Below are positions 24,021-55,559 of a stretch of 64,000 nucleotides of DNA, piece by piece. The translations under genes were made by a program, and so were the position numbers. The notes under the pieces were generated by a model. The model had not been told where the DNA came from. It searched no databases and saw nothing but the letters and a program-made list of their open reading frames with translations. The stretch's first letter is position 1. Each line of letters opens with the position of its first letter. The DNA lies in NCBI GenBank assembly GCA_032986305.1, contig GCA_032986305.1_3672.1; one strand, written 5' to 3'. This stretch comes from a phage.

Positions 24021-24827
24021 TTAGATAAAACGCTTGAACATAGAAGGTGATGAGATTGATGGAATCACACAAGGAAGTGCTACCTCCTCTTTCTCCAGGA
24101 AATTAATTGCAGAAGCTACACAGTCAGCCCAGTCGTCTTTTCTGTTAAATGTTGATCTTTCCCCGTTGAATTTTTCAAGTTCAGTCAGAAATGCTTCCAG
24201 AGTATCAGGATGGAAACTGGATTTTACAATCCTAACCATTCCTTGTTGGGCAAGATTGGCAAAAGGTGAGAACCTTGTCAGTTTAGATTTGTTGGAAGGC
24301 ATTGGGTCTTCTTCAACCCTAAACCCTTCGGCGAGCAAGGATCTGGAGGATGTTAAGAACTCACTCTTACCTGCCTGACCGGGGTCCACAGAGAATACGA
24401 TTATACAATCATCACCATCAAACTGCGCCTGTTTCCTGATGATCACATCTCGTTCACCAGCCTTTTTACAGAACTTGCCTTCCAGACCTGTGGAATACCT
24501 CCCGTCATCCACGTTTTCAGGACAATAATCCCCTGACAGGTAATAAAAGCCGTCGCTATCTTTACTTACCTTAACACTGGCGGTAAAGTCAGGAAATTTA
24601 TTACCGGAAGTTCTGTCGGTTCCTGCCTTATCCCATGCCCTGCAAGATACTGATCCAAGGGGTACTCTATCGGCATCACGAAGGAAAGATCTTTGAAAAT
24701 AGTTTGCACCCTCAGGCTTTGCAAACCAGTTGCCATGAAGAAGCTGGGCTTTTTCAAGCTCGGGCAGACCTTCAAGAAAAGCAAGGTATTCTGGGTTGTC
24801 TCTCAAGCAGACAGGATTATCGAATCC
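24021..24827 (-). CDS. terminase large subunit, exon 2 (nuclease domain); 5' boundary approximate
   Basis: 261-aa ORF; continues the reading frame of exon 1 after removal of the intervening intron. Confidence 0.65.
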   Translation of the reverse strand, partial: GFDNPVCLRDNPEYLAFLEGLPELEKAQLLHGNWFAKPEGANYFQRSFLRDADRVPLGSVSCRAWDKAGTDRTSGNKFPDFTASVKVSKDSDGFYYLSGDYCPENVDDGRYSTGLEGKFCKKAGERDVIIRKQAQFDGDDCIIVFSVDPGQAGKSEFLTSSRSLLAEGFRVEEDPMPSNKSKLTRFSPFANLAQQGMVRIVKSSFHPDTLEAFLTELEKFNGERSTFNRKDDWADCVASAINFLEKEEVALPCVIPSISSPSMFKRFI

Positions 24828-25804
24828 TTATATTCAAAGGTGGTCGCAACACCACCTTCCGCACCTTTACGTGCTGCTGCATGTTACCATGCAGAGTAGA
24901 CTATATCACCACCCATTTCAGGGTGCTTCGCTTTTCGAGCGCCATAAGCTTGCGCCCTACTCCCTCTCGGGATAGTCGTTGAACTACATTACCAATCGTA
25001 ATTGTTTGAAATATAGGTGTAAGTCTTACGGTCTTTTATTCCTTTAACAACACTAAAACTTACTCCCCACTTCTTAGCTATTTTATTTACACACAAGACC
25101 TTATCACTAAGATCCTCGCAGATACCTATTATCTTGTGCTCACTTATCCGATTAGAGGTTGGCACTTTTCTAAAGTTAAACTCTTTAGAAATATCTGGGT
25201 ATACTGAGCCATTCTTTATACCACTTACAAGTGGTTGATTGACACCAAACATTTCACAAATGTCTTTTACCCTTGCGCCTTGCTCTAACAGCCTACATAT
25301 TTCAAGAGCAGTGGCATCATCCAGGGACCTGTATTTATTGACATAGTCCTTTTTAAGTCCCATTTCATGAGCGTGATGTGTGTTTTCCTCAGGCGTTGTC
25401 CACTCAAGGTTCCATGCGGCGTTATTCAACTTATTACCATCTAGGTGGTTTACTTGAGTTTTCACGCTGGGATTGTCATTATCAACAAAAGTCATAGCAA
25501 TCACTCTGTGAACGAGCACTTGGAACTTTTTACCGTCCTCGCACAAAGTTACCATAGCATAGCCAGTCTTTTTCTGCACATTAGGATGGAGGAATTTATT
25601 AGAATACAGACTGTAAATTCTGCCATCGTATGTAGCACAATAATGATTGTAGCCTAAAAAGCCTAAATTTTTCATTTCAAACATCTCCCTACTACAGGTT
25701 CGGAAGGGTAATTATAGCTGCTGATTGTCCGTTTAGCAATCGGATTTCCCAGCAATTAACGAAGTTATTCGACGTGCATTTCTGCACGAAGCCACTATCA
25801 TTTA
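24828..25804 (-). mobile_element. group I intron in terminase large subunit gene, carrying an HNH homing endonuclease ORF (boundaries +/- ~20 nt)
   Basis: R-like GTTCAACGACTATC (reverse of 24962-24975) and S-like GATATAGTCT (reverse of 24897-24906) core elements; 3' core nearly identical to the nrdD intron at 53500-53545; interrupts a single terminase reading frame. Confidence 0.65.
24989..25675 (-). CDS. HNH homing endonuclease (intron-encoded)
   Basis: motif ..VHRVIAMTFVDNDNPSVKTQVNHLDGNKLNNAAWNLEW.. (HNH_3-type); ORF lies inside the intron; stop 12 nt before the R element. Confidence 0.7.
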   Translation of the reverse strand: MKNLGFLGYNHYCATYDGRIYSLYSNKFLHPNVQKKTGYAMVTLCEDGKKFQVLVHRVIAMTFVDNDNPSVKTQVNHLDGNKLNNAAWNLEWTTPEENTHHAHEMGLKKDYVNKYRSLDDATALEICRLLEQGARVKDICEMFGVNQPLVSGIKNGSVYPDISKEFNFRKVPTSNRISEHKIIGICEDLSDKVLCVNKIAKKWGVSFSVVKGIKDRKTYTYISNNYDW

Positions 25805-27649: not shown

Positions 27650-27726
27650 GTGGTCTCCACGGAGTGATTCGAACACTCGACCTCCTGATCCCAAATCAGG
27701 CGCTCTACCAAGCTGAGCTACGCGGA
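27650..27726 (-). tRNA. tRNA-Pro (anticodon UGG)
   Basis: hand-folded cloverleaf: acceptor CTCCGCG/CGTGGAG, T-loop TTCGAAT, anticodon loop TTTGGGA, CCA encoded. Confidence 0.8.
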
Positions 27727-27737
27727 GTATTTACTAT

Positions 27738-27812
27738 TTGGTGGCCCTGGGTGGAATTGAACCACCGTCTGGCGATTATGAGTCGCTTGCTTGAACCTTC
27801 CAGCTACAGGGC
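27738..27812 (-). tRNA. tRNA-Met (anticodon CAU; elongator or Ile-lysidine type)
   Basis: acceptor GGCCCTG/CAGGGCC, T-loop TTCAATT, anticodon loop CTCATAA, CCA encoded. Confidence 0.75.
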
Positions 27813-27813
27813 C

Positions 27814-27889
27814 TTGGTGCTGATGGCAGGACTTGAACCTGCAACCTATTGATTACAAATCAATTGCACTACCAATTGTGCTACATCAG
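27814..27889 (-). tRNA. tRNA-Thr (anticodon UGU)
   Basis: acceptor GCTGATG/CATCAGC, D-stem GCAC/GTGC, anticodon loop TTTGTAA, T-loop TTCAAGT, CCA encoded. Confidence 0.8.
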
Positions 27890-27894
27890 CAAAA

Positions 27895-27993
27895 AGGTGC
27901 TAGGCGGTGGAATCGAACCACCTATGTATTCAACGACTACCTCGTCTATTTTCAGGATTAAAAATCCTCGCCCTTGCCAAAGGGCTTACCTAG
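27895..27993 (-). tRNA. atypical tRNA-like gene, possibly tRNA-Lys (anticodon UUU) with ~30-nt extra region; may be a pseudo-tRNA
   Basis: perfect 7-bp acceptor pairing GCTAGGT/GCCTAGC, canonical T-arm GGTGG-TTCGATT-CCACC, D-stem GCCC/GGGC, 4-bp anticodon stem with loop TTTTTAA, but ~99 nt long and no CCA. Confidence 0.35.
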
Positions 27994-28091
27994 CTCAGTA
28001 TGTTGACCATGTTGCTAGTCGGCGATGACGACTGTAACATTTGATAATCCGGTTCTGCTTCCGGCTTTCGCTTAATTACAAGGTCAACAAT

Positions 28092-28182
28092 GTGGCGGAG
28101 AGTAATGGAATCGAACCATCATCGAGTCATCCTCAATGGGACGGTTTTCAAGACCGCTTGAGCACCATTGCTCCCTACCCTC
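28092..28182 (-). tRNA. tRNA-Ser (anticodon UGA), long variable arm
   Basis: acceptor GGAGGGT/ACTCTCC, anticodon loop CTTGAAA, extended variable arm, discriminator G, CCA encoded. Confidence 0.7.
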
Positions 28183-28189
28183 CTTTATA

Positions 28190-28218
28190 AATTATACTGA
28201 TAATGACACTGATTTTCG
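28190..28218 (-). promoter_or_regulatory. sigma70-like promoter upstream of tRNA-Ser
   Basis: minus strand TCGAAA-N17-TATAAT, -10 ending 7 nt before the tRNA 5' end. Confidence 0.4.
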
Positions 28219-28296
28219 AGCAGTTAGTGACTAGTATAAACGACGATAAATATCAATGCCATTATCTGTATTATTTACGCATCTAAAAATATAAAT

Positions 28297-28383
28297 TTGG
28301 TGGGGAGTGGTGGAGTCGAACCACCCGAGTCGCAATGACAATAGATTTACAGTCTACACCGCTACCTCTACGGGATAACTCCC
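28297..28383 (-). tRNA. tRNA-Tyr (anticodon GUA)
   Basis: acceptor GGGGAGT/ACTCCCC, anticodon loop CTGTAAA, long variable arm, T-loop TTCGACT, CCA encoded. Confidence 0.75.
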
Positions 28384-28387
28384 CAAT

Positions 28388-28462
28388 TTGGCACCCCGTA
28401 CTGGACTCGAACCAGTGTCAACGGCTTAGAAGGCCGCTGCTTTATCCACTAAGCTAACAGGG
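28388..28462 (-). tRNA. tRNA-Arg (anticodon UCU)
   Basis: anticodon stem-loop GCGGC-CTTCTAA-GCCGT, T-arm ACTGG-TTCGAGT-CCAGT, CCA encoded. Confidence 0.7.
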
Positions 28463-28559
28463 CACTGGGTGGCTTTCTTTTACACCTTAGCCGCCAGAAA
28501 AGGTGGGAGACCATGTTTACAATATTACACTGTTAAGCAAAGTTTGTCAAGAAAATATT

Positions 28560-51118: not shown

Positions 51119-51397
51119 ATGAGCTGTGAAAAATCTTTTTTCTTTATTATTTACGGTAAAGATAACTGCCCACATTGTGTAAGAGCAAAAGAATTTGCAG
51201 TCAGTAAAGGTCTGCCTTTTGTATATAAGACACTTGGCGAGGGTTACACAAAAGAAGAGCTTATTGAGAAGTGCAGTCCAATCGTACCCAGAACGTTGCC
51301 GCAGATCTTCTTAGAAAGCAATCTTGAAAGTGCCCATATAGGCGGTGCCGACGATTTCATCTCTTTTGTTAAGAATGGTTTTGGAGAGAAAAAGTGA
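51119..51397 (+). CDS. glutaredoxin/NrdH-like redoxin
   Basis: CPHC active-site motif (..YGKDNCPHCVRAKEF..). Confidence 0.7.
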   Translation: MSCEKSFFFIIYGKDNCPHCVRAKEFAVSKGLPFVYKTLGEGYTKEELIEKCSPIVPRTLPQIFLESNLESAHIGGADDFISFVKNGFGEKK

Positions 51398-52254
51398 AAG
51401 TTGTAAAACGGGACGGTAGAGAAGAGGTCTATAACGGAATTAAGGTGATCAAGGCGGCAGAGTCCGCCTTACTTGAGTCTGGACATACTGAAGAAGAAGC
51501 TTACCGGATCGCCTGCGCGGTTAATGAAGTTGTTGCTAACAATCTACCAACCGACCAGTGCACGATCTCTGTAAAAAATATCCATATCCTTGTTGAAGAC
51601 GCTCTTATGGATATGGGTTTAAAATGTGCAGCCAGAGAATACATCCAGTATAGGCAGACAAGAGATAATAACAGAGAGGCAGGTGGAAAACTGCTTGCAG
51701 ATATTAGTGGCTTCTTGGATCGCACTTGTGATGAATTTACAAAAGAAAACGCAAATAAGCCTACCAATCATGTACACACTCATCGTGACCTGCTTGCAGG
51801 CATCCTTAGCAAACACCTTGCATCAACACAGATCCTGCCAGACCGTGTCTCAGAAGAGCACAATAAAGGCTTCATCCATGTGCATGATCTTGACTACTTG
51901 ATCAGTCCGTTAACAAACTGTTGTTTGGTAAATTATCCAGATATGTTGGAAAACGGATTCAACATTGGTAACGCCCATGTCAGTAAGCCGAAGTCAATAG
52001 GGGTTGCAACAACAATCCTTAGCCAAATTTCTAGTGCAGTAGCTAGTGCTCAGTATGGGGGTCAGACTATGAGCCATATTGATCATTATCTGGCACAGTA
52101 TGCTGAGGCGACCTATGAGAAGAATCTTAAATTTTGCCAGGAACACTGGTTGCCAGATGCTGAGACTGTTGCAATGCAAATGACAGATAAAGACGTATTT
52201 GACAGCATGCAGACTTTGCTCTATCAAATCAATACGTTAACCTCTGTCAACGGT
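51394..52254 (+). CDS. nrdD: anaerobic ribonucleotide reductase NrdD, exon 1 (GTG start)
   Basis: N-terminal ATP-cone-like MKVVKRDGREEVYNG..; reading frame continues into exons 2 and 3 after intron removal. Confidence 0.7.
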
Positions 52255-52568
52255 TAACAAACTGGCCGTTTTAAAACTCTGCTAACCTCAGTATGAGGGG
52301 TCAGCTGATCGCTGGCTAACGGGGAACGCTAAGGCGAAAGCTATGCCAATCCCGTGACTAGCTTCACAAGGAGTGAGGCGGTTGTAACGACTAACCTTTT
52401 GGTGTAGGGATTATGGAAGATTCCGAAACGCAGAGGTCTGATTAAGAATCACACGGTGTGATTTCAGGCAAGAGATAGTCTGGCCTTGTGGAAACATAAG
52501 GGTGGGGACCGCAAACCCCTTTTATCACATTAAGTTTAGGTCTGGACACCTCAGTATTTGGTAGAATG
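52255..52568 (+). mobile_element. group I intron 1 in nrdD (ORF-less, ~314 nt)
   Basis: non-coding insertion between in-frame nrdD segments; R-like AACGACTAACC (52386-52396), S-like AGATAGTC (52473-52480); 5' exon ends in GGT, intron ends AATG; homologous to the other two introns. Confidence 0.55.
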
Positions 52569-52811
52569 ATTACCAAAAACTACTTGAAAGTCCACAAAAT
52601 GGGTCTTGGTGAAGAATGTATCACACCTGTGTTCCCTAAAGTGCTGTTCTTCCTAGAAGAGGGTGTCAACATGAACCCTGGAGATCCTAACTATGATTTG
52701 AAACGTTTAGCTCTGGAATGCTCTGCAGAGCGGATTTATCCTGACTTTGTTTCTGTTCCACTAAATCGTAAAGTGACAGGCTCGACAGATGGCAAAGTAA
52801 CGAGCATGGGT
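52569..52811 (+). CDS. nrdD: NrdD exon 2
   Basis: encodes ..VFPKVLFFLEEGVNMNPGDPNYDLKRLALECSAERIYPDF.. matching recalled class III RNR sequence; ends in GGT before intron 2. Confidence 0.6.
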
Positions 52812-53573
52812 AAACTATAACTGCTCATGTAAAATCTATCTAAACGGGGAAACTCCAGAACGGACAATCCCGTGCTAAACGTAACAGAACTCCTGACCAA
52901 GAGGAGTCCTGAAATGAGAAAACAAATTCGTGATTTTGAAGGTTATGAAATTGACGAGATGGGCAATGTTTATTGCACCCGCTACGAAAATGAAAGAATT
53001 ATTCATTCGTGGGAAGAGATAAACACAGGTTACCGTCTTGTTAGGATACGCAAGAACAAAAAGACTGTTTGCCTAAGGGTTCACAGACTTGTTGCTGAAG
53101 CGTTCTTACCAAATCCAGACAATTTACCCTATGTTAAGCACAAAGGGGACAACAGGAAAGATAACAGTGTATACAACCTTGAGTGGGGAGCTTGCCCAGA
53201 CAATACGCAAGAAGGATACAACAACAACTGTTATGCTTTTTACACAAGATGCCACGGTGTGAAAGCCACCAACAAATTAACTGGTGAGGTTTTCCACTTT
53301 AAAAGTCTGAGATGTTGTGCTGATGTTTTAGGAGTGGATAGAAAAAGAATATCTGCTATCCTGAAACGTGGTGCGCCTAATAACTATGATTACGAGTTCT
53401 GTTACGAAATGCCTAACGACTAACCGTGATGAATGTAGCGGTGTAGGGTGTAAGCCGATGACACTCGAAATGGTAGACACACTAAGTGTGAAGATATAGT
53501 CTGATCTGCATGGGAACATGCAGCAGCACGTAAAGGTGCGGGGGTGGACTTGCGAACCACCCTGAACATAATG
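52812..53573 (+). mobile_element. group I intron 2 in nrdD, carrying an HNH homing endonuclease ORF
   Basis: R-like AACGACTAACC (53415-53425), S-like AAGATATAGTC (53491-53501); 3' core near-identical to terminase intron; exons rejoin as ..TSMG|CRSFL.. Confidence 0.65.
52915..53423 (+). CDS. HNH homing endonuclease (intron-encoded)
   Basis: GAGGAG RBS; motif ..RVHRLVAEAFLPNPDNLPYVKHKGDNRKDNSVYNLEW..; stop codon lies inside the intron R element. Confidence 0.7.
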
Positions 53574-54536
53574 TGTAGAAGTTTCTTATCGAAATATAGC
53601 GACCCTGTAACAGGCGAGGAGAAATACCTTGGCAGATTTAACTTAGGCGTTGTTAGCCTTAACCTGCCAATGATTGCGGCAAAAGCCAAGACGGAAGGTG
53701 TTGATTTCTTTGCAGTTCTTGACGAATACTTGGATCTTGCATACGAGGCTCACCTTGTAAGGGTTAATCGTCTAAAAGGAACAAAGGCAGGGCAGAACCC
53801 CATCATGTGGTGTGAAGGCGCTCTTGCTCGCCTGGATCCTGAAGAGAGTGTTGATAAACTCTTCTATGACGGGTACGCTTCCATCAGTATTGGGTATATT
53901 GGTGTGTATGAAACCTGTCAGATTTTGGGTAGAGAGGGTGACAAGGCTTTAGCTCTTGGAATCCTTCAGCACATGAGAGATGCTTGTGAGCGATACAAGA
54001 AGGAAAGTAGACTAGCGTTTAGCTTGTACGGCACTCCTTCTGAGAGTCTATGCTATAAAGCTGCAACCTGTCTGGATCGTGAATATCCGGAAGTGTTGAA
54101 GCACGAGCATGAATATCTCACCAACAGTTTCCATCAGCCAGTATGGATAAATAGCTCTCCTTTTGATAAGTGGGAGTATGAGGAAGGTTTTGCTATGATC
54201 TCCTCTGGTGGCAACATCGGATACGTAGAAACACCTAACCTGAAAAACAACCTGGATGCTTTAGAGGCTCTTGTTGACTTCGGGTATAAACATATTATGT
54301 ACTTCGGTATAAACCAGCCTGTTGACCAATGCTTCAAGTGCGGTTTCCAGGGAGAATTTAAAGCCTCTCCAAGAGGTTTTATATGCCCTTGTTGTGGAAA
54401 CCATGAGGAGGGAACGATCAGTGTAATTAGACGTGTGTCTGGATACCTTTCCAGTCCTAACTCCCGTCCTTACAATAAAGGTAAGCAAGCGGAAGTTATA
54501 GAACGGGTTAAGCACTATGGAAGTTGTAGTTGCTGA
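53574..54536 (+). CDS. nrdD: NrdD exon 3 (glycyl-radical C-terminal part)
   Basis: CRSFL..GRFNLGVVSLNLPMIA, C-terminal Cys cluster CFKCG..CPCCG and glycyl-radical-like RRVSGYL. Confidence 0.7.
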   Translation, partial: CRSFLSKYSDPVTGEEKYLGRFNLGVVSLNLPMIAAKAKTEGVDFFAVLDEYLDLAYEAHLVRVNRLKGTKAGQNPIMWCEGALARLDPEESVDKLFYDGYASISIGYIGVYETCQILGREGDKALALGILQHMRDACERYKKESRLAFSLYGTPSESLCYKAATCLDREYPEVLKHEHEYLTNSFHQPVWINSSPFDKWEYEEGFAMISSGGNIGYVETPNLKNNLDALEALVDFGYKHIMYFGINQPVDQCFKCGFQGEFKASPRGFICPCCGNHEEGTISVIRRVSGYLSSPNSRPYNKGKQAEVIERVKHYGSCSC

Positions 54537-54539
54537 TAC

Positions 54540-54569
54540 TTGACAGAAGCCACAAGGATGTGGCATACT
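54540..54569 (+). promoter_or_regulatory. sigma70-like promoter
   Basis: TTGACA-N18-CATACT. Confidence 0.4.
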
Positions 54570-54602
54570 TGGCTAATCTATGAGAACCAAGAGGGATCAA
54601 AG

Positions 54603-55559
54603 ATGCCTAGAGGAAAACAACTTACAACTGAAGAATTTACAAAAAGAGCTAGAGAAGTACATGGCGATAAATATGACTATTCAAAAACCGTATATAAAAC
54701 TGCTAAAAGTAAGGTTGTAATTGTATGCCCTGTTCATGGTGAGTTTACGCAGATCGCTGGACATCATATCCTTGACGGTAGTGGGTGTCCTAAGTGTGGT
54801 AGAGTGCCAGTAGGCAATAAGCTTAGAAACGATTCTAGTGATATTATCAAAAAATTTGTAAAAATCCACGGTGACACCTATGATTATTCTAAGGTTGAAT
54901 ATGTTAACTATAAAACTCCTGTAAAAATTGTATGCCCTGAGCACGGAGTGTTCTTGCAATCCCCATCTAACCATTTGAAAGGCCAAGGGTGCCCTGAGTG
55001 TAGTAAACTCATTAGCGCAGCAAAAAGGAATAAAGGCCCTGAATTCATAGAAAGAGCCAAAGAAATCCATGGCGATAAATATGACTACTCTTTTGTAGAT
55101 TATATGACTTGCGAAGATAAGGTAGAGATAATCTGCAACACTTGTGGAAATCACTTCACCCAGACACCTTCTTGCCACCTGTCTGGTCGTGGATGCCCTA
55201 AATGTGCCAAAAACGGTTTCTTATCTCACAACTATGGGAAGCTTTACCTCATGGTTGATAACTTAGAAGCGCCAACACTTATGAAGATTGGTGTGAGCGT
55301 CAATGTAGAAGCGAGGAAGGGAAGGATATTAAGAGCATCCAAGAAGGCTGGTGCAGGTATTTATGATCTCCACATAGTAAAAACATGGGGCGGATCGACT
55401 GAAAACATGCTGAGTGTAGAAAAATCTGTGCATGAAGCCTTCAATAAGTATAAAATAAACTTCTCTAAAGTATTTAGTGGAAGCACTGAATTCTTTCACT
55501 ACAGACCTGAAGTGTTTAGCATAGTGGAAGCAGTATACAAAGAGATCTGTGGTAAATGA
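54603..55559 (+). CDS. free-standing homing-endonuclease-like protein: three zinc-finger repeats plus C-terminal T5orf172/GIY-YIG-related domain (tentative)
   Basis: three repeats of HGDKYDYS..C(P)..HG.F..H..G.GCP.C; C-terminal ..GKLYLMVDN..KIGVS..HIV..; between nrdD and nrdG. Confidence 0.45.
   Translation: MPRGKQLTTEEFTKRAREVHGDKYDYSKTVYKTAKSKVVIVCPVHGEFTQIAGHHILDGSGCPKCGRVPVGNKLRNDSSDIIKKFVKIHGDTYDYSKVEYVNYKTPVKIVCPEHGVFLQSPSNHLKGQGCPECSKLISAAKRNKGPEFIERAKEIHGDKYDYSFVDYMTCEDKVEIICNTCGNHFTQTPSCHLSGRGCPKCAKNGFLSHNYGKLYLMVDNLEAPTLMKIGVSVNVEARKGRILRASKKAGAGIYDLHIVKTWGGSTENMLSVEKSVHEAFNKYKINFSKVFSGSTEFFHYRPEVFSIVEAVYKEICGK

Follow-up and report, generated by a model that had tools for sequence, protein, structure and literature searches.

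A td-like group I intron in nrdD of an rV5-like phage, with an HNH endonuclease frame ending inside the ribozyme core

The window examined here, a stretch of 64,000 nucleotides of phage DNA, contains nrdD of an rV5-like (Vequintavirus) E. coli phage, and this gene harbours a mobile td-like group I intron of the IA type at positions 52812–53573 of the plus strand, on which all nrdD features below also lie. The element (intron 2 of nrdD, 762 nt) contains P7.1 and P7.2, which are typical of subgroup IA, lacks P2, follows U52811, and has G53573 as its last nucleotide. Both edges are fixed because an intron-less allele exists in phage AlexBoehm: the window reads ...ATGGGT(52811)/AAACTA...AATG(53573)/TGTAGA, whereas the uninterrupted allele reads ...ATGGGT/TGC..., and the length gap between them in BLAST is 762 nt, so that the interval proposed in the first-pass annotation corresponds to exactly one intron. 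Intron 1 of nrdD ends at 52511, as defined by an intron-1-less allele, which ruled out an end at 52538 considered by analogy with intron 2. The spliced gene (51394–52254, 52512–52811, and 53574–54536) encodes 707 residues with no internal stop. Judged at the sequence level, from the precise interruption, the frame restored on removal, the U–G pair in P1, the terminal G, and the conserved P3–P9 core with its P3/P7 pseudoknot, the element is a group I intron, predicted to self-splice. The splice-site pair in P1 is the wobble U52811–G52823; the homologues have U–G in 8 of 11 and U–A in the other 3. With Rfam at the gathering threshold, no intron was called in the window: the copy scored 35.3 bits against RF00028 (gathering score, 50), falling short because the ~500-nt ORF splits the intron and interrupts its core, and a permissive run placed the 3′ half of intron 2 wrongly, at the beginning of the model. 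The ORF-less homologues of phi92 and ECGD1, whose core sequence is the same, scored 70.6 and 70.4 bits.

Identity comparisons show horizontal spread of the intron, which is 100% identical where the exons are 92–98% identical, and 86% identical where the exons are at 66–74%. The start of exon 3 (53574–53633) appears to have travelled with it, as a putative co-conversion tract or a cleavage-resistant target: this segment is 100% identical to phiWec191, against 92.4% for the remainder of exon 3, and shows 84% identity with the uninterrupted AlexBoehm allele. The conservation of the intron over that of the exons, together with the putative co-conversion tract, indicates recent homing.

The ribozyme core could be traced helix by helix. 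P1 (52804–52830) is formed by the exon sequence GCAUGGGU (52804–11) and the internal guide GCUCAUGU (52823–30), with 90.8% of cells paired, and its loop carries a TAA in frame with the exon (52818–52820). The 5′ half of the core (52835–52875) comprises the 5′ strand of P3 (52835–40; compensatory changes in 4 of 6 pairs), P4 (52844–48 with 52869–73; 2 of 5), P5 (52854–56 with 52862–64; 2 of 4), and the 5′ GC of P6 (52874–75). The 5′ strand of P6a, CGUAACAG (52880–87, extendable to 13 nt, 52880–92), closes the loop that bears the ORF; this strand varies between homologues, in each case fitting the last codons of the accompanying ORF. The 3′ part (53423–53501) consists of P7.1 (53423–26 with 53439–42), P7.2 (53446–51 with 53461–66), the 3′ strand of P3 (53472–77), P8 (53478–82 with 53486–90), J8/7 (AAGAUA), and the 3′ strand of P7 (UAGUC, 53497–501), with covariation in P7.1, P7.2, and P8. 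The P9 region (53506–53573), which runs to the terminal G, contains P9 (53506–12 with 53517–23), P9.1 (53526–29 with 53536–39), and P9.2 (53542–47 with 53557–62), all three being assigned from the fold and the covariation set.

Among 11 introns, 97% of the cells were paired, against 31–41% with slid partners, a control that is biased in favour of the structure because the latter was derived from the window sequence; none of 500 shuffles was as good. Changes on both sides occurred in 29 of the 62 pairs, and compensatory changes were present in P3, P4, P5, P7.1, P7.2, P8, P9, and P9.2. P6 and P7 are invariant in this set, so that P7 has no covariation backing of its own; in the fold, GACUA (53418–22) pairs with UAGUC (53497–501). 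The minimum free energy (MFE) fold of the ORF-deleted intron recovered P1, P4, P5, P6, P6a, P7, P8, and P9–P9.2.

The P6a loop holds an ORF for an HNH homing endonuclease similar to I-HmuI (52914–53423; 169 residues plus TAA). The first-pass annotation had placed this ORF at 52915–53423; its end is right, and its start shifts to the ATG at 52914, the frame from 52915 containing eight stops. The frame from 52914 matches I-HmuI over its full length, in agreement with the proposed intron-encoded HNH protein. A phmmer search against I-HmuI (PDB ID: 1u3e) gave E = 1.8e-7 over residues 3–166, and Foldseek gave the same entry as the sole significant PDB match (E = 7.4e-11; probability, 1.00; TM, 0.53). 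The putative catalytic residues His76, Asn88, and Asn97 are invariant among 25 relatives. Pfam matches fall under the curated cutoffs (HNH_3, PF13392, 19.7 bits against 24.8; I-HmuI NUMOD-like, 20.2 bits against 27), and PF13392 is precomputed on homologues at 45–50% identity. Relative to VEcB, the ORF differs at 78 nucleotides, with none in the last 24 nt, and a dN/dS of 0.038 shows purifying selection; on these comparative grounds the ORF is functional. Were it instead a decaying, untranslated remnant, no conflict between translation and folding would arise, and the sub-cutoff Pfam scores, the known deletion derivatives (phi92, ECGD1, and two further loci), and the sequestered Shine-Dalgarno sequence described below would fit such decay. 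We consider this highly improbable in view of the low dN/dS across so many differences, the full-length sequence and fold likeness to I-HmuI, catalytic His/Asn/Asn included, and the recent homing implied by an intron far better conserved than its host gene.

The ORF shares its final 25 nt (53399–53423) with the ribozyme, as placed by the Rfam alignment, the fold, and the covariation. They supply the 3′ strand of P6a (CUGUUACG, 53399–406), the 3′ GC of P6 (53411–12), J6/7 (CUAAC, 53413–17), the 5′ strand of P7 (GACUA, 53418–22), and the first base of P7.1 (53423). The stop codon TAA (53421–53423) lies within AACGACTAACC (53415–53425), the R element made up of J6/7 and the 5′ strand of P7, and consists of the final two bases of that P7 strand and the first of P7.1. 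In the ORF-less homologues of phi92 and ECGD1, the Rfam model aligns UGCCUAACGACUA to the consensus gGUUCAaAGACUA (P6′/J6-7/P7). The proposal that the HNH stop sits inside an R-like core element is borne out by Rfam on the ORF-less homologues, the fold, and the 11-intron covariation, and the covariance model, named beforehand as the test that might move the core elsewhere, leaves it over the end of the ORF.

A second intron with an ORF interrupts the terminase gene (TerL) on the minus strand (24826–25804), as identified from the intron-less allele of FV3, Pfam, and Rfam (35.3 bits); the spliced TerL has 515 residues. The TAA of its ORF (24991–24989) is located 11 nt before the P7 GACTA (24977–73), 8 nt upstream of AACGAC, and 4 nt upstream of GTTCAACGACTA. 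The first-pass annotation described the same arrangement here, with the ORF ending 12 nt before the R element; the distance is roughly right, but the stop falls in the 3′ strand of P6a, not in P7. The terminase intron is thus similar, not identical, to that of nrdD.

The overlap of ORF and core in nrdD is real, yet it is an already known arrangement with nothing categorically new. Overlap of this kind is a well-established trait of phage group I introns, T4 td among them, and the first-pass presentation of it as unusual does not hold. The T4 td intron with I-TevI has a homologous core that shares AAATGCCTAACGACTA, the terminal CUGAACAUAAUG, and the P3–P4 sequences with the window, and its ORF likewise occupies the P6a loop, the 3′ end giving P6a′, P6′, and J6/7 up to P7. 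In T4, 20 nt at the end of I-TevI make P6a/P6/P7 (PMC3073962), compared with 25 nt in the nrdD intron. In both, the ribosome-binding site lies in a hairpin and an in-frame exon stop is found just within the intron. They differ in the host gene (td and nrdD), in the endonuclease (GIY-YIG and the unrelated I-HmuI-like HNH), in P2, which is absent from the nrdD intron, and in the late promoter, none having been identified within the latter. I-TevI ends at GCC TAA in J6/7, whereas the nrdD stop lies 7 nt further in, at P7/P7.1, and in a different reading frame. The DNA polymerase introns of the Bacillus phages SPO1 and SP82 encode endonucleases of the same family as the present one and of like size (I-HmuI and I-HmuII; 174 residues against 169 here); the SPO1 ORF sits in P8 and overlaps it by 9 nt (PMC3073962, Table 1), unlike the P6a–P7 overlap in nrdD, and the host gene and intron lineage also differ. 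The Bacillus thuringiensis nrdF intron has a GIY-YIG ORF in P6a with a 56-nt overlap with P6a/P7/P7.1/7.1a (PMC3073962, Table 1). By this published description it is like nrdD in being an IA intron of a ribonucleotide-reductase gene with a P6a ORF that runs through P7 into P7.1, and it differs in the endonuclease family, the longer overlap, and the bacterial host. Within the phage group of the window (Vequintavirinae), an HNH-bearing terminase intron has been described in rV5 (Kropinski 2013), and HNH introns of terL, polymerase, nrdA, and nrdB of phage CB7 splice by RT-PCR (Buttimer 2020). For the nrdD introns of Vequintavirus and Justusliebigvirus, our literature search found GenBank annotations only (joined CDS; "spliced variant" in phi92) and no structural or ORF-overlap analysis.

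The Shine-Dalgarno sequence of the ORF, AGGAG (52902–06), 7 nt upstream of the ATG, is covered by a predicted hairpin, CAG-A-ACUCCU...AGGAGU-C-CUG (52885–52911). Its MFE in the window is −11.7 kcal/mol (z = −2.53; 3 of 200 shuffles equally good), a moderate advantage over shuffles; the signal is weak in VEcB (z = −0.85) and F98 (z = −1.7), and the hairpin of the terminase intron (z = −0.13) does no better than shuffles. Hairpins of differing sequence cover the site in VEcB, F98, and GEC_vB_B1, and in silico the Shine-Dalgarno bases are paired in both the nascent and the full-length ensembles of the four homologues. A promoter scan restricted to sigma-70-type sites found none upstream of the ORF that would explain its expression. 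A ribosome completing the ORF would unwind P6a, P6, P7, and P7.1, which would prevent splicing in the way known from T4 td, where premature translation of I-TevI lowers splicing according to the summary of Gibb & Edgell (2010) in a review (PMC3073962). From this analogy we infer that translation and core folding would compete in this intron too. The in-frame TAA two codons inside the intron would halt ribosomes arriving from the exon, and the hairpin around the Shine-Dalgarno sequence, folding upon transcription, would keep translation of the ORF rare; the predicted sequestration suggests that such competition is probably held down and not constant.

Alternatively, the overlap might have evolved for regulation and not as a by-product: pairing of P6a with the end of the ORF would open the Shine-Dalgarno hairpin, so that translation would begin only once the complete intron had been made and folded, or termination in P7 would time splicing. 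In the window and VEcB, P6a can be extended to 13 consecutive pairs, which then run into the 5′ arm of the hairpin, the fold of the ORF-deleted mini-intron picked this extended P6a, and the P7 stop is retained as TAA or TAG across three lineages. Against these observations, the Shine-Dalgarno zone stays mostly paired in partition-function folds of nascent and full-length RNA, in F98 and GEC the P6a strand and the hairpin occupy separate stretches, and the copies of Felix O1-like phages, with an earlier stop, work. Selection for the stop is also unneeded, since the A or G at its third position occurs in ORF-less introns as well. We regard regulation as an unlikely origin of the overlap. One specific version, a riboswitch in which the 13-bp P6a (52880–92 with 53394–406) frees the Shine-Dalgarno sequence once the 3′ end of the ORF has been transcribed, was dropped because accessibility barely shifts (unpaired probability from nascent to full-length RNA, 0.23 to 0.34 in the window and 0.23 to 0.40 in VEcB; unchanged in F98 and GEC) and the strands are non-overlapping in the latter two. 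Nor did the purine at the third base of the stop codon give evidence of selection for termination: A or G also occupies this position in ORF-less introns, where it changes together with its partner in P7.1. That first pair of P7.1 is A–U in 5 sequences and G–C in 3, which makes the stop TAA in the former case and TAG in the latter.

The relatives of the intron, found better with a DNA pattern for P7/P7.1 than with the HNH protein as query, which gave only one near-identical locus, form a series of stop positions. In ORF-less relatives, the core reads TAA ATG CCN AAC GAC TAR, with two in-frame stops. Copies of the same HNH gene in Felix O1-like phages end at the first of these. In the window, VEcB, and Vibrio F98, the first-stop triplet is GAA, and in another copy TTA, so that five more codons, (E/L)MPND, are read; the base G53406 of the window is T, giving the TAA stop, in the ORF-less and Felix O1-like relatives. 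The stops of the series lie within P7 or upstream of it by 8, 9, or 40 nt, and an unrelated NUMOD3 ORF at another locus terminates at the same GAC TAA. Proteins of the family stop directly past NNYDYxFEY(I/V), with (E/L)MPND added by the window-type proteins only. AlphaFold (pLDDT, 88.6) models residues 160–164 as the last strand and residues 165–169 as coil of lower confidence; the five-residue tail EMPND is probably an unstructured appendage, whose sequence would be dictated by constraints on the RNA.

From this pattern, the origin of the overlap looks like the loss of an earlier stop, a natural case of "core creep", in which a stop changes to a sense codon and the ORF reaches the next in-frame stop of the core, with extensions of varying length (Edgell, Chalamcharla & Belfort 2011, BMC Biol 9:22; PMC3073962, which also covers the hairpin at the ribosome-binding site and the splicing defect). 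The endonuclease would at first have ended at the earlier core stop, a state that Felix O1-like phages retain, and a single substitution, giving GAA here and TTA in another lineage in place of TAA, would have extended the frame to the P7 stop. The proposal came without a comparable set of stops, and the nrdD family displays the predicted pattern; the present case departs from the proposal in that the lost stop belongs to the core itself (UAAAUGCC) and the short form already overlaps P6a′. As for later uses of the term core creep, those found were in papers on fungal mitochondrial introns.

The direction of change between TAA and GAA rests on outgroup parsimony rather than on a resolved tree, and the opposite polarity deserves consideration: the long form, with its P7 stop, might be ancestral, and the short form of the Felix O1 type might have arisen by a G-to-T nonsense mutation, with no creep involved. 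The two states are one base apart, and the three HNH lineages are about equidistant (41–52% identity), so that a tree alone gives no polarity. Other evidence makes an ancestral long form improbable. All five remnant-free ORF-less introns have TAAATGCC, with T, not GAAATGCC, and T is found there also in T4 td, whose ORF is unrelated. Remoter members of the endonuclease family, in other introns, end directly past the conserved motif; two distinct replacements (GAA and TTA) are most simply derived from TAA; and ORF-deleted derivatives of the long form retain GAA, which indicates that loss of the ORF does not recreate TAA.

A mobile td-like intron with an ORF running through P6a′–P7, an origin of that overlap by creep, and rare translation is, taken as a whole, likely the best explanation of the locus. 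We lean, by a little, towards a broader reading, in which the nrdD intron family is a stepwise record of creep, the last step having lost the core stop, probably at least twice independently, and GACUA-R serving as a back-stop. The window is one codon short relative to F98 and GEC, which leaves the exact mutational path ambiguous. If the broader reading is true, the stop positions of intron ORFs would be set largely by the stop-codon content of the core strings and not by selection on the protein, and GACUA-R at the P7/P7.1 junction would stop any ORF that entered P6 in that frame, as the unrelated NUMOD3 ORF ending there illustrates. The ORF-less, short-ORF, long-ORF, and ORF-deleted forms, all at one site and in culturable coliphages, provide a clean comparative series for core creep, and the same series is usable to measure the splicing cost of a ribosome terminating within P7.

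For annotation, nrdD is a single gene for 707 residues in three exons, and terL is a single gene in two exons. Many relatives in GenBank list the pieces of nrdD and terL as separate "hypothetical" or partial proteins.

By its sequence, the window can be assigned to an rV5-like E. coli myovirus (Vequintavirus), with a nrdD region 93–98% identical to those of many rV5-like phages (BLAST against phage genomes). Three consecutive ORFs of the window cover successive parts of the Pfam NRDD model (1–154, 180–263, and 263–562), and nrdD is therefore split by two insertions. The second was delimited with the allele of phage AlexBoehm, which lacks it: AlexBoehm reads ...ACGAGCATGGGT/TGCCGGAGT..., and the window ...ACGAGCATGGGT(52811)/AAACTATAA...ACATAATG(53573)/TGTAGAAGT.... 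Because of this junction and a BLAST length difference of exactly 762 nt, the coordinates proposed at first for intron 2 (52812–53573, + strand) are exact. The first insertion (intron 1; 52255–52511, + strand; 257 nt) is an ORF-less group I intron with boundaries taken from the intron-1-less phage phiWec191; it has an in-frame TAA at its start, a G at its end, and an R-like string, GTAACGACTAACC, at 52387–52399, and its Rfam score, only 29.2 bits, is below threshold. The three exons joined encode a 707-aa protein with zero internal stops.

At the gathering threshold, Rfam reported no intron over the window, whereas its permissive mode gave three sub-threshold group I matches, located in intron 1, the 3′ part of intron 2, and the terminase gene. 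Intron 2 is missed at threshold because of its 500-nt ORF. The same intron occurs, at the identical insertion site and with the ORF absent, in the Justusliebigvirus phages phi92 and ECGD1, and these copies score 70.6 and 70.4 bits, respectively (gathering score, 50). In their Rfam alignments, UGCCUAACGACUA falls on the consensus P6′/J6-7/P7 segment gGUUCAaAGACUA, and GAAGAUAUAGUCU on the J8/7–P7′ segment; the same strings are present in the window, so that the covariance model places the core where it had been proposed. Minimum free energy (MFE) folding of the window intron without its ORF also recovered P1, P4, P5, P6, P6a, P7, P8, P9, P9.1, and P9.2, with P7 formed by GACUA (53418–53422) and UAGUC (53497–53501). 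Covariation was scored in 11 ORF-deleted mini-introns (window, phi92, Vibrio phage F98, Salmonella phage GEC_vB_B1, six IMG/VR contigs, and T4 td) on a structure built by hand, with the P3/P7 pseudoknot as well as P7.1 and P7.2. Paired cells amounted to 97.0%, against 31–41% with the partners slid by 1–3 columns (the structure was taken from the window row, favouring it in the slid control); both sides changed in 29 of the 62 pairs, and the observed score was attained in 0 of 500 shuffles. P7 and P6 are invariant in this alignment, and are therefore backed by conservation and the model, not by covariation.

The first-pass annotation had placed the HNH ORF at 52915–53423; its TAA end (53421–53423) holds, whereas the start is 52914, as reading from 52915 yields 8 stops. 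In frame from 52914, the ORF encodes 169 aa with the C-terminus ...YEFCYEMPND. Its final 25 nt (53399–53423, + strand) are core sequence of intron 2, comprising the P6a 3′ strand (CUGUUACG, 53399–53406), the GC of P6′ (53411–53412), J6/7 (CUAAC, 53413–53417), the P7 5′ strand (GACUA, 53418–53422), and the first base of P7.1 (A53423), the last base of the ORF. As claimed, the stop codon lies in the catalytic core, with U53421 and A53422 in P7 and A53423 in P7.1. In the ORF-bearing Justusliebigvirus VEcB, the stop is TAG and the P7.1 partner is changed from U to C (ACCG/CGGU to GCUG/CAGC).

Comparison with the real T4 sequence revealed long stretches identical between the td and window introns, among them AAATGCCTAACGACTA and the 3′-terminal CTGAACATAATG. 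I-TevI of T4, an unrelated GIY-YIG protein, is likewise encoded in the P6a loop and has AAT GCC TAA as its final codons, ending in J6/7, 2 nt before GACUA, whereas the window ORF uses another frame of the td string (ATG CCT AAC GAC TAA) and terminates 7 nt deeper. The last 20 nt of I-TevI are part of P6a, P6, and P7 according to the review of Edgell, Chalamcharla, and Belfort (PMC3073962), which tabulates further overlaps, e.g., 56 nt over P6a/P7/P7.1 in the B. thuringiensis nrdF intron; a second review agrees (PMC3984707). Given both reviews, the overlap and the inferred conflict between translation and folding are established knowledge of a kind unsurprising to a specialist, and the modest added interest lies in the comparative series, in culturable coliphages. 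Altogether, intron 2 is a genuine group I intron of the td-like kind, carrying an I-HmuI-type HNH gene with its stop in the catalytic core.

The comparative series consists of 24 IMG/VR loci from a scan for the P7/P7.1 string, phage-database matches, and three metagenomic contigs. Introns without an ORF or its traces occur at the same nrdD site (L010, L029, and L032) and elsewhere (L011 and L020); in these, a short P6a hairpin is followed by TAAATGCCNAACGACTAR, holding two in-frame stops (TAA ATG CCN AAC GAC TAR), and T4 td likewise has T at the first position of the first-stop triplet. At the same nrdD site, Felix O1-like phages have an HNH ORF of the same family (50% identity), which ends at the first stop (...TAC ATC TAA), with ATG CCG AAC GAC TAA in frame beyond it. 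The first-stop triplet is GAA in the window, VEcB, and F98, and TTA in a metagenomic copy (P0006/L035), and in all four the ORF runs to the P7 stop, giving the C-terminus ...(E/L)MPND; in more distant same-site members, the stop lies 8 nt (L038) or 40 nt (L039) before P7. The published "core creep" proposal holds that a lost stop lets the ORF extend to the next in-frame core stop (PMC3073962). Loss of the stop in UAAAUGCC would let the frame continue to the stop built into P7/P7.1, and core creep is the simplest reading of the stop series, which closely fits this little-tested hypothesis. Either triplet, GAA or TTA, can be reached from TAA in a single step, which points to more than one stop-loss event, while a sequential path would also be possible. 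Among 120 relatives, family C-termini lie 0–2 residues from the conserved NNYDYxFEY(I/V) motif, and only 5 sequences carry MPND; in the AlphaFold model, the last strand is YEFCY (160–164) and EMPND is coil, with lower confidence in the last block. The window ORF is one codon shorter than those of F98 and GEC_vB_B1. Since an unrelated ORF of ~279 aa with a NUMOD3 motif and a nuclease motif of the HH..N..H type, located in another group I intron (L014, 3816–4655; IMG/VR 3300021431_002738), ends ...KKCND on the same P7 GAC TAA, this stop is a general back-stop.

Each lineage has a P6a 5′ strand of its own, complementary to the last codons of its ORF (5′ and 3′ strands: CGUAACAG and CUGUUACG in the window and VEcB, CAAAGUAUU and GAAUACUUUG in F98, GAUGUA and UACAUC in GEC_vB_B1, and UGUAGGAC and GUUCUACA in T4 td). 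The introns of phi92 (L003, 1489–1800) and ECGD1 (L002) are deletions of the long-form ORF, keeping GAA, the last ORF codons, and the ribosome-binding-site (RBS) hairpin, and the phi92 deletion is bounded by two CTG repeats. Two Felix O1-like contigs (L019 and L022) have in-frame short-form deletions leaving a 12-codon mini-ORF, MPNNFEYEFEYI. These four are snapshots of endonuclease-gene loss.

In Pfam, the HNH protein scores below the curated cutoffs for both HNH_3 and the I-HmuI NUMOD-like domain, and phmmer against PDB sequences matched I-HmuI (1u3e) over the full length (E = 1.8e-7). I-HmuI was also the sole significant PDB match (Foldseek E = 7.4e-11) of the AlphaFold model (mean pLDDT, 88.6), for which 25 relatives were used; His76, Asn88, and Asn97 are invariant in the family alignment. 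The window and VEcB genes differ at 78 nucleotides and only 15 amino acids (dN/dS, 0.038), and the gene is under strong purifying selection. None of the 78 differences falls in the final 24 nt (~3.7 expected at the average rate), consistent with a double constraint on protein and RNA. Intron 2 is 100% identical to that of phiWec191 (exons, 92–98%) and 86% to that of VEcB (exons, 66–74%), and behaves as a mobile element. The first ~60 nt of exon 3 (53574–53633, + strand) are 100% identical to intron-bearing phiWec191, against 92.4% for the remaining exon 3, and co-travel with the intron; they show many synonymous differences from the intron-less allele, whereas the exon 2 end is identical in both. 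This stretch is either a co-conversion tract on one side only or a target resistant to cleavage.

A ribosome terminating at 53421–53423 would keep P6a′, P6′, J6/7, P7, and P7.1 single-stranded, and the ribozyme could not fold meanwhile; for this conflict, we infer ribosome occupancy of the core from the T4 precedent. It may be limited by an in-frame TAA (52818–52820) two codons inside the intron, which would stop exon-derived ribosomes, and by a hairpin (52885–52911; −11.7 kcal/mol) with the Shine–Dalgarno (SD) AGGAG (52902–52906) in its 3′ arm, which would limit ORF translation. This hairpin has z = −2.53 (as good in 3 of 200 shuffles), the SD is also occluded by hairpins, differing in sequence, in VEcB (z = −0.85), F98 (−1.68), and GEC_vB_B1 (−3.20), and the SD zone is mostly paired in predicted ensembles of nascent and full-length RNA. 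A scan for sigma-70-type sites found no such promoter upstream of the HNH ORF. P6a is extendable to 13 uninterrupted bp across the 500-nt ORF (52880–52892 with 53394–53406), a stretch that overlaps the SD hairpin in its 5′ arm; its sequence is identical in VEcB and thus provides no covariation evidence, and its action as an SD-freeing switch was unsupported by folding predictions. In the long-form metagenomic copy L035, the ATG is 3 nt downstream of the P6a 5′ strand (GCTAAGGGTAAGAAAATG), and the RBS would likely be part of P6a itself, an alternative way of occlusion.

The terminase intron (25804–24826, − strand; 979 nt), bounded by the intron-less FV3 allele, yields a 515-aa TerL after splicing in silico; rV5 was previously reported to carry an intron in its terminase gene (PMC3606486). 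Its HNH ORF is a distant relative of the nrdD one (29% identity over the nuclease domain). The same arrangement had been ascribed to it, and this stands insofar as the ORF lies in the P6a loop and its TAA (24991–24989) inside the P6a 3′ strand GGUAAU of the closing stem, but P7, 11 nt downstream, is not overlapped.

Between nrdD and nrdG, a 339-aa ORF (54540–55559, + strand) matches Pfam T5orf172/MUG113 (GIY-YIG-like), DUF723, and a treble-clef zinc-ribbon; in AlexBoehm, this position is occupied only by a hypothetical gene of 117 nt. The 339-aa product is a candidate homing endonuclease of the free-standing type, adjoining the intron-rich nrdD. About 20 unannotated GenBank MG0656xx "Campylobacter phage" records (host, C. 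jejuni) are 97–100% identical to the E. coli Vequintavirus region, intron included, and their host assignment looks doubtful. Five tRNA genes are clustered at 27654–28463 (− strand), with a sub-threshold match to the tRNA-Sec model at 28097–28183 (41.2 versus 47 bits) and a weak tRNA with a long extra arm at 28303–28382.
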